Assembly (NCBI RefSeq): GCF_003334815.1
Contig: NZ_QOWO01000047.1
Length of the DNA: 26,414 nt
Direction: 5' to 3' (one strand)
From: Escherichia coli
GTDB taxonomy: Bacteria > Pseudomonadota > Gammaproteobacteria > Enterobacterales > Enterobacteriaceae
In this document: piece after piece, positions 15,001 through 21,000 of the stretch
How the letters are laid out: every line of letters begins with the position of its first letter
Numbering within the stretch: position 1 is the stretch's first letter
Made by a program: the position numbers

Positions 15001-18000
15001 AGATGCAAGAATGCAGCACGCAAAAAATTTGATACGCGTAGAAGGTTCAGTCAATAAAATTGCCGAACAATGTGGTTATGCCAGTACATCTTATTTTATT
15101 TATGCGTTCCGCAAACATTTCGGCAACAGTCCGAAGAGAGTTTCTAAGGAGTACCGTTGTCAAAGTCACACGGGTATGAATACGGGCAACACGATGAATG
15201 CTTTAGCTATTTGATTATTTGCTAACGAGTAGTCAACCACACACGCTGCGTAAGAATTAAATGGGGCAGCCATTCCCTGCCCCGCGTTGTTTTTAGGCGA
15301 TATATTTATTGAAATAAATAAGTGACATCCATCACATATTTATGCACTTGCATAACCTGTTGCATGATTATTTATGATCTCAATTCTGCATTTTGTCAGT
15401 AAAATGCAATAATTTATTAAATATCAATAAATTAGTTGTTTATCGGCGAGAAATTACTTAATAGAACAGAAAGTAATGTCAACGCTTTATGGACTGTTTT
15501 TTCCCTTTTTTTAGCTAAATCTGCTATCTCTTTATGTGACTAACTTCACTTACATCCACTTATTTCTCTTCGTAAAATTACTTTGGAATTAAGTACAATA
15601 AGAAGAGGAACATTTATGAAGTCTGCATTAAAGAAAAGTGTCGTAAGTACCTCGATATCTTTGATACTGGCATCTGGTATGGCTGCATTTGCTGCTCATG
15701 CGGCAGATGATGTAAAGCTGAAAGCAACCAAAACAAACGTTGCTTTCTCAGACTTTACGCCGACAGAATACAGTACCAAAGGAAAGCCAAATATTATCGT
15801 ACTGACCATGGATGATCTTGGTTATGGACAACTTCCTTTTGATAAGGGATCTTTTGACCCAAAAACAATGGAAAATCGTGAAGTTGTCGATACCTACAAA
15901 ATAGGGATAGATAAAGCCATTGAAGCTGCACAAAAATCAACGCCGACGCTCCTTTCATTAATGGATGAAGGCGTACGTTTTACTAACGGCTATGTGGCAC
16001 ACGGTGTTTCCGGCCCCTCCCGCGCCGCAATAATGACCGGTCGAGTTCCCGCCCGCTTTGGTGTCTATTCCAATACCGATGCTCAGGATGGTATTCCGCT
16101 AACAGAAACTTTCTTGCCTGAATTATTCCAGAATCATGGTTATTACACTGCAGCAGTAGGTAAATGGCACTTGTCAAAAATCAGTAATGTGCCGGTACCG
16201 GAAGATAAACAAACGCGTGACTATCATGACAACTTCACCACATTTTCTGCGGAAGAATGGCAACCTCAAAACCGTGGCTTTGATTACTTTATGGGATTCC
16301 ACGCTGCAGGAACGGCATATTACAACTCCCCTTCACTGTTCAAAAATCGTGAACGTGTCCCCGCAAAAGGTTATATCAGCGATCAGTTAACCGATGAGGC
16401 AATTGGCGTTGTTGATCGTGCCAAAACACTTGACCAGCCTTTTATGCTTTACCTGGCTTATAATGCTCCGCACCTGCCAAATGATAATCCTGCACCGGAT
16501 CAATATCAGAAGCAATTTAATACCGGTAGTCAAACAGCAGATAACTACTACGCTTCCGTTTATTCTGTTGATCAGGGTGTAAAACGCATTCTCGAACAAC
16601 TGAAGAAAAACGGACAGTATGACAATACAATTATTCTCTTTACCTCCGATAATGGTGCGGTTATCGATGGTCCTCTGCCGCTGAACGGGGCGCAAAAAGG
16701 CTATAAGAGTCAGACCTATCCTGGCGGTACTCACACCCCAATGTTTATGTGGTGGAAAGGAAAACTTCAACCCGGTAATTATGACAAGCTGATTTCCGCA
16801 ATGGATTTCTACCCGACAGCTCTTGATGCAGCCGATATCAGCATTCCAAAAGACCTTAAGCTGGATGGCGTTTCCTTGCTGCCCTGGTTGCAAGATAAGA
16901 AACAAGGCGAGCCACATAAAAATCTGACCTGGATAACCTCTTATTCTCACTGGTTTGACGAGGAAAATATTCCATTCTGGGATAATTACCACAAATTTGT
17001 TCGCCATCAGTCAGACGATTACCCGCATAACCCCAACACTGAGGACTTAAGCCAATTCTCTTATACGGTGAGAAATAACGATTATTCGCTTGTCTATACA
17101 GTAGAAAACAATCAGTTAGGTCTCTACAAACTGACGGATCTACAGCAAAAAGATAACCTTGCCGCCGCCAATCCGCAGGTCGTTAAAGAGATGCAAGGCG
17201 TGGTAAGAGAGTTTATCGACAGCAGCCAGCCACCGCTTAGCGAGGTAAATCAGGAGAAGTTTAACAATATCAAGAAAGCACTAAGCGAAGCGAAATAACT
17301 AAACCTTCATGCGGCGGATTTTTCCGCCGCCTTATTGAGCGAGATAGCGATGCACGTTACAGCCAAGCCCTCCAGTTTTCAATGTAATCTCAAATGTGAT
17401 TACTGTTTTTACCTTGAAAAAGAGTCGCAGTTTACTCATGAAAAATGGATGGATGACAGCACTCTGAAAGAGTTCATCAAACAATATATCGCAGCGTCTG
17501 GCAATCAGGTCTATTTTACCTGGCAAGGCGGTGAACCCACTCTGGCTGGCCTGGATTTTTTCCGTAAAGTTATTCACTATCAACAACGCTATGCAGGCCA
17601 AAAACGTATTTTTAATGCATTACAAACGAATGGCATTTTATTGAATAATGAATGGTGTGCCTTTCTCAAAGAACATGAATTTCTGGTTGGTATCTCGATC
17701 GATGGCCCCCAGGAGTTACATGACCGTTACAGACGCAGTAATTCAGGTAACGGTACTTTTGCAAAAGTGATAGCAGCCATCGAGCGTCTGAAATCATATC
17801 AAGTAGAGTTTAATACGTTAACCGTCATTAATAACGTTAATGTCCATTACCCTCTTGAGGTTTATCATTTTTTAAAATCTATCGGCAGTAAACATATGCA
17901 ATTTATCGAATTGCTAGAAACCGGGACGCCGAATATTGATTTCAGTGGTCATAGTGAGAACACATTCCGTATCATTGATTTTTCTGTGCCTCCCACGGCT

Positions 18001-21000
18001 TATGGCAAGTTTATGTCAACCATTTTTATGCAATGGGTTAAAAACGATGTGGGTGAAATTTTCATCCGTCAGTTTGAAAGCTTTGTCAGCCGTTTTTTGG
18101 GGAATGGGCATACCAGTTGTATTTTCCAGGAGTCCTGCAAGGATAATCTGGTTGTTGAAAGTAATGGAGACATTTACGAATGCGACCATTTTGTCTATCC
18201 ACAGTACAAAATTGGAAACATTAATAAATCTGAACTCAAAACGATGAACAGTGTACAACTGACAGCGCAAAAAAAACGGATTCCAGCGAAATGTCAGCAA
18301 TGTGCATATAAACCTATCTGCAATGGCGGTTGTCCTAAGCATCGTATTACTAAAGTAAACAATGAGACTGTTTCTTATTTTTGCGAAGGTTATAAAATCC
18401 TTTTTTCAACCATGGTACCTTATATGAACGCCATGGTAGAGTTAGCTAAGAACAGAGTACCGCTTTACCACATTATGGATGTTGCAAAACAAATGGAGAA
18501 TAATTAATAACGCTCTCTTTTAACTCCATTCTTAGCCTCCTTCTTATGACCTTAACAAGGCACCCGACATAAATTCCTGTCGGGTGTTTCGTCATCATCA
18601 TCTTCCCTTGCGAAAATCCTGGCTTACGTGGTATGCATCAGGGCATTAGCAATATCCTTGATTATCAATAGCATAACCATAACCACTGAAAATGAAATAT
18701 TCCTTTATATTTCATATTGTTAAATGATACTTAAATAAATTTCATCAGTAAATCATTGCCATAGATAATCATTGGATGGCACAATCAATTTTCGCTAATG
18801 ATAACCATTCCCATTACGCTTCGTATGTTGATAGCAAAGTATCTCTGTCTGTTGAAGCCCTTTTGGCTGCGTAAGAATAATAAAACTTCAGTGTTGTTAA
18901 TCATTATTATCCTCGCCATGATCCTTGGCGTGGTTAAAATTCAGGTCTGGTTAAACGACTGGAATAATGATTTTTTCAATGCGCTAAGCCAGAAAGAAAC
19001 CGATAAGCTTTGGCAGCTTGTCCTTTGGTTCCCTGCCCTGCTGGGGATCTTTGTATTAATATCCGTAAACAAAACATGGTTAATTAAACTACTGACTATT
19101 CGCTGGCGCGAATGGTTAACAGATTACTACCTTAATCGGTGGTTTGCAGATAAAAACTACTACTTCACGCAGATCTACGGCGAGCATAAAAATACAGATA
19201 ACCCTGACCAACGTATCGCTGAAGACATTCTCTTACTGATCAGCAAAACGCTCAGTCTTTCATTTGGCTTCATCCAGTCACTTAGCATGCTGATCACCTT
19301 TACCGTTATTCTTTGGGAAAGCGCGGGTACGCTCTCATTCACTGTTGGTGGAACAGAATGGAATATCCAGGGGTATATGGTCTATACCGTCGTGCTCATT
19401 GTGATCGGTGGAACTTTATTTACCCATAAGGTGGGTAAACGTATTCGTCCGCTTAATGTGGAAAAACAACGTAGCGAAGCGACATTTCGAACAAATCTTG
19501 TGCAGCATAATAAGCAGGCAGAACTGATTGCGCTAAGCAATGCTGAGTCTCTACAACGCCAGGAGTTGAGCGACAATTTTCATACCATTAAAGAGAACTG
19601 GCATCGTTTAATGAATCGTCAGCGGTGGCTTGATTACTGGCAGAATATTTATTCGCGCTCGCTTAGCGTTCTTCCCTACTTTCTGTTATTGCCGCAGTTT
19701 ATTAGCGGGCAGATCAATCTGGGCGGACTGATGAAATCGCGCCAGGCATTTATGCTGGTATCGAACAATTTAAGCTGGTTTATTTATAAATATGACGAAC
19801 TTGCTGAACTGGCTGCGGTTATCGATCGCTTGTATGAGTTCCATCAACTCACTGAACAGCGCCCTACGAATAAGCCTAAAAATTGCCAACATGCGGTACA
19901 AGTGGCTGATGCGAGTATTCGTACGCCTGATAATAAGATCATATTAGAGAACCTGAACTTTCATGTTTCGCCAGGCAAATGGCTATTACTGAAAGGCTAC
20001 TCTGGTGCGGGAAAAACCACACTGCTTAAAACATTATCCCACTGCTGGCCGTGGTTTAAAGGTGATATTTCTTCTCCTGCTGACAGTTGGTATGTGTCAC
20101 AAACACCGTTAATCAAAACCGGCTTACTGAAAGAGATTATTTGTAAAGCACTTCCCCTGCCCGTAGACGATAAATCGTTGAGCGAAGTACTGCATCAGGT
20201 TGGTCTTGGGAAATTGGCTGCGCGTATTCATGACCACGATCGCTGGGGAGATATTCTTTCCAGCGGCGAAAAACAACGTATCGCCCTGGCACGATTAATT
20301 TTACGACGTCCGAAATGGATATTTCTTGACGAAACTACCTCTCATCTTGAGGAACAAGAGGCTATCCGCTTACTGCGTTTAGTGCGTGAAAAACTACCCA
20401 CAAGCGGCGTCATTATGGTTACACATCAACCCGGTGTCTGGAACCTGGCCGATGATATTTGTGACATTAGCGCGGTTTTATAAAAACAATAAAAGCCCTG
20501 CTGTACGGAGATATAAATAAATGAAGCGAGTTCTTATTCCTGGCGTCATTTTATGTGGCGCTGATGTGGCGCAGGCCGTCGATGACAAAAACATGTACAT
20601 GCATTTTTTTGAAGAGATGACGGTCTATGCTCCTGTCCCTGTACCCGTAAACGGCAACACGCATTACACCAGTGAAAGCATCGAGCGTTTACCGACCGGG
20701 AATGGCAATATCAGCGATCTGCTGAGAACCAACCCTGCGGTACGCATGGATTCAACGCAAAGTACCTCGTTGAACCAGGGAGATATTCGCCCTGAGAAAA
20801 TCTCTATTCACGGTGCGTCGCCCTACCAGAATGCCTATTTGATTGACGGTATTAGTGCAACTAATAACCTGAACCCAGCGAATGAGTCCGATGCCAGTAG
20901 TGCAACCAATATTAGCGGGATGTCACAGGGGTATTATCTTGATGTCAGCTTACTGGACAATGTGACGCTTTATGACAGTTTTGTGCCGGTTGAATTTGGT

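Follow-up and report, generated by a model that had tools for sequence, protein, structure and literature searches.

Among the closest described counterparts of the genes treated here is the atsB-atsA pair of Klebsiella pneumoniae, in which a Sec-exported Ser-type sulfatase is encoded beside a three-cluster radical S-adenosylmethionine (SAM) maturase. AtsA, the sulfatase of that pair, is matured in the cytoplasm ahead of export. Maturases of family TIGR03942 include anSMEcpe of Clostridium perfringens (PDB 4K36-4K39) and ChuR of Bacteroides. Escherichia coli itself carries aslA/aslB, where a putative maturase, AslB, is likewise encoded beside a putative sulfatase. The two maturase-like genes of E. 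coli were reportedly studied together as deletion mutants by Benjdia et al. in 2007, and according to the title of that paper, Cys-type maturation in this organism is not due to either of them. The subject of this work is the second E. coli pair, ydeN and ydeM, in a 26,414-nucleotide stretch of E. coli DNA (contig NZ_QOWO01000047.1 of assembly GCF_003334815.1), referred to here as the window. The two genes very probably form an operon for a periplasmic, formylglycine-dependent sulfatase. This reading draws on the features of the sequence, the families to which the two proteins belong, the conservation of their pairing, purifying selection on both genes, and covariation in the hairpin between the genes.

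The window runs opposite to the K-12 map orientation. Of 5426 complete E. coli genomes, 5382 (99%) match its segment 15400-18800, and at least 80% of the segment lies in one place in 5324 of them. The gene order in RefSeq is ydeO, ydeN, ydeM, yddA, yddB, pqqL. The Ser-type motif, the pairing, and the maturase assignment were all known previously from RefSeq, the K-12 annotation, and the literature. The present analysis goes slightly further in showing that the module is strictly conserved and mobile and that its stem-loop covaries, and in judging its acid-resistance neighbourhood to be incidental.

The ydeN gene (b1498) occupies 15616..17298 on the plus strand, with an ATG at 15616 and a TAA at 17296-17298, and encodes a family S1 sulfatase precursor of 560 amino acids. 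The Pfam Sulfatase model (PF00884) matches residues 58-408 over its whole length, positions 1-301, with an E-value of 1.5e-70. Within this domain lies the formylglycine motif S132-G-P-S-R136 (16009..16023, plus strand), in which the position to be modified is a Ser encoded by TCC at 16009-16011. The motif extends as S132-G-P-S-R136-A-A-I-M-T-G, which is the (C/S)-x-P-x-R-x4-T-G form, and S132 to R136 and T141 are invariant. The tryptic peptide containing Ser132 is FTNGYVAHGVSGPSR. Across 20 YdeN orthologues of 54-84% identity, D66, D67, S132-R136, K183, H185, H286, D345, N346, and K364 are all invariant. These residues, which include those for metal and sulfate binding, align with motifs that solved sulfatases of subfamily S1_19 share with YdeN (DD, (C/S)GPSR, GKWHL, APH, SDNG, and GxK); SGPSR of YdeN falls on SGPSR/CGPSR of 9HH2/9HH3. 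Residues 1-29 (15616..15702, plus strand), read by inspection, form a Sec-type signal peptide, MKSALKKSVVSTSISLILASGMAAFAAHA followed by ADD, with the predicted cleavage between AHA and ADD. This leader has three Lys, a 19-residue hydrophobic core, and a terminal A-H-A; it has no twin arginine and so is not of the Tat type. Comparable leaders ending in A-x-A are found in the orthologues.

The clade around YdeN is compact. Among 1.84 billion cluster representatives searched, the next relatives have at most 43% identity. Every orthologue in the clade carries SGPSR. Outgroups at 35-45% identity share a roughly 40-residue insertion with YdeN; most have Cys at the modified position, and a few lineages have Ser. 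No NCBIfam sulfatase equivalog cut-off is reached by YdeN, and the best score, to the arylsulfatase model NF010322 (PRK13759), is 123.1 bits where 481 are required. This places YdeN in sulfatase family S1 but outside any named, characterised family, and it belongs to a different sulfatase subfamily from Klebsiella AtsA.

The ydeM gene (17350..18507, plus strand) has an ATG at 17350 and a TAA at 18505-18507, and encodes a predicted radical-SAM/SPASM sulfatase maturase of 385 amino acids. Residues 2-364 match positions 1-362 of the 363 in TIGR03942, the anaerobic sulfatase maturase family; the score is 505.5 bits, well above the cut-off of 349.45. The Pfam Radical_SAM and SPASM models also match (E-values of 3.2e-22 and 1.9e-06). 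Solved anSMEcpe (4K36) aligns with residues 4-359 with an E-value of 5.9e-63. The radical-SAM [4Fe-4S] ligands C12-x3-C16-x2-C19 (17383..17406, plus strand) align with C15, C19, and C22 of 4K36. In the SPASM region (18118..18384, plus strand), C257, C263, C278, D279, C315, C318, C324, C328, and C345 correspond one to one with C255, C261, C276, D277, C317, C320, C326, C330, and C348. By the ligand assignment of the published structure, the eight SPASM Cys correspond to the ligands of two auxiliary [4Fe-4S] clusters. YdeM and anSMEcpe thus share the CX3CX2C motif, the eight auxiliary Cys, a QGGEP sequence, and an Asp adjacent to auxiliary Cys number three. This Asp, D279 of YdeM, matches the proposed catalytic Asp D277 of 4K36. 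All 11 cluster Cys, D279, and Q59-G-G-E-P63, which holds the GGE SAM-binding motif, are invariant in 18 YdeM orthologues. The two maturases differ in their partners, the natural partner of anSMEcpe being a Cys-type sulfatase and that of YdeM being uniformly Ser-type. The aslB locus fits different sulfatase and maturase models, and on NF010308 YdeM scores 364 bits against a cut-off of 484. In one paper ydeM is called putatively YdeN-specific.

Pairing of the two genes was followed through 20 loci with YdeN relatives, from Escherichia, Leminorella, Citrobacter, Cedecea, Mixta, Salmonella, Yersinia, Proteus, Aeromonas, Shewanella, Iodobacter, Grimontia, Psychromonas, Anaerobiospirillum, and Fusobacterium. 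In 19 of the 20, from Escherichia to Fusobacterium, the sulfatase gene is followed at once by a maturase gene in the same orientation, and the gap in E. coli is 51 nucleotides. A sequence-only reading of the window had proposed a Ser-type sulfatase with the SGPSR signature, followed directly by a radical-SAM maturase with a CxxxCxxC motif and C-terminal Cys clusters. Family models, motif conservation, and adjacency all support that proposal, and the coordinates it gave are exact. It also placed the pair between ydeO and yddA-yddB-pqqL, in agreement with the annotated order. The same reading called the maturase anaerobic; the family assignment stands, and the word belongs to the name of TIGR03942, not to a demonstrated requirement.

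The gene order of the pair differs from that in Klebsiella, where the maturase gene comes first. In ydeN-ydeM the sulfatase gene comes first, and a stem-loop separates the two. This stem-loop, GCGGCGGA-UUUU-UCCGCCGC, lies at 17311..17330 on the plus strand, where the sequence-only reading had noticed a short GC hairpin. Its arms are at 17311-17318 and 17323-17330. It is composed of 8 perfect pairs, 7 of them G-C, and a UUUU loop, with a folding energy of -16.2 kcal/mol. The 51-nucleotide spacer folds better than 99% of its own dinucleotide shuffles, and of the 13 proteobacterial spacers compared in this way, 12 reached p < 0.05. Fusobacterium spacers showed no comparable structure in this shuffle test. 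When spacers from 11 genera were aligned, an 11-pair consensus helix was obtained, with compensatory double changes in 10 of the 11 pairs. The helix is paired in 90% of cells versus 76% in shuffles, and sliding the partners cuts pairing to 42-65%. In 500 shuffles, neither the observed pairing nor the covariation score nor the number of pairs with a double change was ever matched. Selection thus acts on the structure of the intergenic hairpin. The element lies 6-24 nucleotides past the sulfatase stop, except in Grimontia, which has a long spacer, and 12-22 nucleotides ahead of the maturase ATG, except in Psychromonas, where the distance is 40. In E. coli it is 19.

An Rfam search over 15100-18900 returned only isrK, on the minus strand, whose 20 bits fall short of the gathering score of 50 (E-value of 0.26), and this was rejected as a chance match. 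A repetitive extragenic palindromic (REP) element was rejected for the hairpin, which is unlike the REP consensus and covaries only in the ydeN-ydeM operon.

A hairpin of this kind could be a complete terminator, with ydeM transcribed from its own promoter and the two genes forming separate transcription units. The stem is GC-rich and followed by T-rich sequence, and the terminator scan called the hairpin terminator-like in Citrobacter and Leminorella. A terminator rule of at least 5 T in 8 for the tail is satisfied by 5 of the 13 orthologous spacers; several genera have 1-4. In E. coli only four of the eight tail positions (CTTATTGA) are T, so that a full U-tract is missing, and the scan gave no call. 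Against separate units stand also the 19 nucleotides between stem and ATG, where the promoter scan found no match, and the reported co-transcription of the genes and their joint derepression in an araC deletion strain. Full termination is therefore unlikely. Without a full U-tract, the E. coli hairpin is most likely a leaky terminator or an RNA-stability element. As a leaky terminator or 3'-protective stem-loop, it would yield more sulfatase than maturase message.

The region upstream of ydeN contains two sites of the CRP type. The upstream one, AGTGACATCCATCACA (15321..15336, plus strand), has one mismatch to TGTGA-N6-TCACA. Its reverse complement, TGTGATGGATGTCACT, is a site assigned to ydeN by CRP chromatin immunoprecipitation sequencing in enterotoxigenic E. 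coli H10407 (PMC4287617), and ydeN is a CRP target by genomic systematic evolution of ligands by exponential enrichment (PMC3105977). The second site, TGTGACTAACTTCACT (15535..15550, plus strand), also has one mismatch to the consensus, and E. albertii and Citrobacter retain its TGTGA..TCA core, which Leminorella has in part. A promoter scan match at 15549-15578 ends in a predicted -10 hexamer, TAAAAT (15573..15578, plus strand), whose AAAAT core is invariant in the upstream regions of eight genera. The second site would be centred about 42 nucleotides upstream of the start implied by this -10, as at a class II CRP promoter.

Two repressors have been described for the operon. According to two papers that cite or preview the primary study of AraC and ydeNM (Stringer et al. 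2014), AraC binds upstream of ydeN only with arabinose, AraC with arabinose represses ydeN, and ydeMN is over-expressed in an araC deletion strain. A scan for the AraC operator, TAGC-N7-TCCATA with up to three mismatches, was uninformative, with 197 matches versus 190 expected, and the candidate TAGCTAAATCTGCTATC at 15512-15528 is no better than chance. The second repressor is GadX, whose binding lowers the ydeN transcript. At pH 4.4, ydeN falls about 40-fold (log2 of -5.31 in RNA and -5.05 in ribosome footprints) and is among the most strongly down-regulated genes, with malE, xylF, and treC. One paper links ydeNM to AraC and to diet-dependent fitness in mice, and YdeN protein has been detected anaerobically in rumen fluid. 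From CRP binding, repression by AraC and GadX, and the fall at pH 4.4, the operon behaves like a catabolite-controlled carbon-source gene that is off in acid stress. The pattern fits a catabolite-controlled glycan-desulfation function. It differs from Klebsiella, where atsB-atsA is regulated by sulfur supply.

The sequence-only reading had also placed the pair in an acid-fitness neighbourhood. This holds for position and not for function. Genes of the EvgA-YdeO-GadE regulon are induced by acid or by the acid-resistance activators, and by published data ydeN shows the opposite, being repressed by GadX and dropping at pH 4.4. Neighbourhoods also differ within Escherichia. A cryptic-clade genome lacks ydeP-safA-ydeO, and in E. 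albertii the pair is followed immediately by gadB and adjoins neither ydeO nor yddA. Outside Escherichia, no acid-resistance neighbours of the pair were found in the loci examined. It is unlikely that the neighbourhood points to the function of the pair.

The pair recurs in unrelated contexts. It is found beside a Rep3/MobA region in Proteus, between transposases in Aeromonas, and beside TraI-type genes in Salmonella, and YdeN-like genes are present on 33 PLSDB plasmids. When the flanking open reading frames of the 20 loci were clustered, no family other than the sulfatase-maturase pair occurred in more than three loci; a porin occurred in two. As a clue to the substrate, the neighbourhood offered nothing that recurs beyond the pair itself. 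With no other conserved neighbour, the sulfatase-maturase pair is a self-contained and partly mobile unit. It is also under strong purifying selection, with dN/dS values against E. albertii of 0.014 for ydeN and 0.043 for ydeM, which, together with its self-contained and mobile character, argues against a decaying remnant.

Several further observations concern copies of the module elsewhere. An 8.4-kb contig of Proteus mirabilis (L024) carries the full pair and the intergenic stem-loop beside Rep3, RelB/YafQ, and MobA genes, and looks like a small mobilisable plasmid. Some E. coli have a second Ser-type YdeN paralogue, 77% identical and 565 amino acids long (L021 3847-5544, L022 2729-4426, and E. 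coli plasmids H44-H56). It has a porin gene directly before it and no maturase downstream. Most of the E. coli plasmid matches are of this type. This paralogue may depend on chromosomal ydeM in trans. In E. albertii (L003), homology to the window covers only 15424-18511, that is, ydeN-ydeM and about 190 nucleotides upstream, at 82.5% nucleotide identity and with a dS of 1.4-1.7. This divergence is presumably greater than expected for the two species. An independent insertion in E. albertii was considered and dropped, since gadB directly downstream marks the same chromosomal region. GC content is 36-45% in 1-kb windows over safA-ydeO-ydeN-ydeM (13500-19500). By gene it is 44% in ydeN, 38.7% in ydeM, 39.4% in ydeO, and 50% in ydeP. 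The low GC of safA-ydeO-ydeN-ydeM is consistent with horizontally acquired DNA.

The S1_19 carrageenan sulfatases (SulfAtlas; PDB 9HH2, 6BIA, 6B0J, and 6PSM) are the best solved relatives of YdeN, with 150-182 bits. They are the nearest structures by score, and YdeN may be considered a candidate member of the subfamily. It differs from them in three respects. The wild-type S1_19 enzymes are Cys-type (CGPSR in 9HH3) and YdeN has SGPSR. YdeN has YPGG-HTP where they have EGG-RVP. The insertion of about 40 residues that follows the DD motif in YdeN is missing from their structures. A GlcNAc-6-sulfatase (N-acetylglucosamine-6-sulfatase), an activity suggested in the literature, is not the closest relative; the solved enzyme 5G2V scores 108 bits versus 182 for S1_19.

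Certain points weigh against ydeN-ydeM as a working sulfatase operon. The Ser-type sulfatase of Klebsiella is reported to mature in E. coli only when AtsB is supplied with it, which suggests that YdeM is poorly expressed or specific. With the nearest solved sulfatases lacking the post-DD insertion, transfer of a substrate to YdeN is weak. The incomplete U-tract of the E. coli hairpin belongs here as well. The name ydeN is absent from four supplementary files of the Adams 2021 term-seq study, including the curated list of RNA 3' ends; the operon may have been silent under those conditions. In a later paper the sulfatase maturation systems of E. coli are described as not yet fully understood. 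The substrates of the YdeN/YdeM system have not been reported according to one paper, as the sequence-only reading had said.

Such points could mean that the pair is a cryptic remnant, its genes intact but silent or never matured, and unused as a sulfatase system in E. coli. The absence of a known activity or substrate, the reported failure of E. coli to mature a foreign Ser-type sulfatase without AtsB, the AT-rich region, and repression by two regulators would all fit. A remnant is nevertheless distinctly improbable in view of the low dN/dS of both genes, retention of the pair in 99% of complete genomes, the invariance of all catalytic and cluster residues, the strong condition-dependent transcript changes, and the detection of the protein. 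It is highly improbable that YdeN uses Ser132 itself as the nucleophile in the style of the alkaline phosphatase superfamily, or acts on phosphate or phosphonate esters, with YdeM modifying something else. In its favour, the RefSeq name is only "sulfatase-like hydrolase/transferase", the Phosphodiest, PehA, LtaS, and YejM models match weakly, and no NCBIfam sulfatase equivalog reaches its cut-off; against it, the complete S-x-P-x-R-x4-T-G maturation motif is invariant, an equivalog-level sulfatase maturase adjoins in 19 of 20 loci, and the sulfate-binding Lys and His align with those of true sulfatases.

For the formylglycine-dependent operon, a sequence of steps can be proposed from what is known of Ser-type sulfatases, AtsB, and anSME. 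All of the sequence requirements are present, and the chemistry is taken by analogy. Transcription would begin at the CRP-dependent promoter upstream of ydeN and would be shut off by AraC with arabinose and by GadX. YdeN would be made with its Sec leader, and YdeM would bind the S132-G-P-S-R stretch of the still-unfolded protein in the cytoplasm. Using SAM and three [4Fe-4S] clusters, YdeM would abstract the C-beta hydrogen of Ser132, leading to formylglycine. Mature YdeN would then be exported by Sec, and its aldehyde, hydrated and held where D66, D67, D345, and N346 form a site for a divalent metal, would attack the sulfate ester. The conserved stem-loop would stop or stabilise most transcripts after ydeN, leaving the sulfatase in excess over the catalytic maturase. 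The substrate would most likely be a small sulfated carbohydrate of host or dietary glycan origin that reaches the periplasm. This last step is a guess drawn from four weak lines, namely control by CRP and AraC, gut-dwelling carriers, the porin beside the sulfatase at two loci, and closest characterised relatives that are carbohydrate sulfatases.

A wider picture is offered tentatively and is less likely than not to hold. The module would be a mobile two-gene cassette, carried on plasmids and beside insertion sequences and genes of integrative and conjugative elements, with a covarying stem-loop that sets a high ratio of sulfatase to maturase. Proteins of the YdeN clade would make up a Ser-type subfamily, so far uncharacterised, that desulfates host or dietary glycan fragments, possibly 4-O-sulfated galactose or N-acetylgalactosamine, in gut Proteobacteria under CRP and AraC control. 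The orphan paralogues on plasmids would need chromosomal YdeM in trans.

Other features lie at the ends of the operon. A stem-loop at 18561..18586 on the plus strand, CACCCGACA-N8-TGTCGGGTG followed by TTTCGT, is the likely 3' end of the operon; the terminator scan gave no call on it. The only Adams 2021 entry near the locus is a Rho-dependent termination region at K-12 position 1579674 on the minus strand (supplementary file 2), and the study lists no 3' end at the intergenic hairpin. It corresponds to about 18466 in the window, within the 3' end of ydeM and just upstream of this stem-loop. The annotated antisense gene yneP (18473-18595, minus strand) is 40 codons long and overlaps the final 35 nucleotides of ydeM, including the stop codon. 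On the other side, a strong terminator-like hairpin, TGGGGCAGCCATTCCCTGCCCCG followed by CGTTGTTTTT, lies at 15262-15284, 48 nucleotides past the ydeO stop. It was called on both strands and separates ydeO from the ydeN promoter region.

Over 26.2 kb, the window differs from K-12 MG1655 by 11 substitutions and by two deletions of one base each. Natural isolates match it best over its whole length, with 99.9% identity. Ten of the substitutions are in intact genes and give seven amino-acid changes (hipA A358E, ydeT L41F, ydeO P147L, ydeN A144V, yddB I501V, and pqqL L76R and F185L) and one stop in safA; the eleventh is in the yneO pseudogene. The ydeO L147 allele is the common one. The ydeN change is a private single-nucleotide polymorphism, GCT to GTT at 16046 (plus strand), just after the S-x-P-x-R-x4-T-G-R stretch. 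No exact match to the A144V allele was found among 5354 complete E. coli genomes. It is probably neutral, because position 144 varies among orthologues. The safA stop is at codon 27 (14259-14261), where K-12 has TTA and the window has TAA, so that the 65-amino-acid EvgS-to-PhoQ connector is cut after 26 residues. One of 2863 complete genomes holding that stretch has this allele. Positions 1-176 of the window are unmatched to K-12 at this place and adjoin the yneO autotransporter pseudogene. They read as the reverse complement of an IS1 left end with the start of insA, and look like an IS1 insertion that is absent from MG1655 here.

In the gut, sulfatases determine which sulfated glycans of the host bacteria can reach. 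The identity of the YdeN substrate would fill a gap in the gut physiology of E. coli, and would account for the link to AraC and for the diet-dependent fitness in mice.

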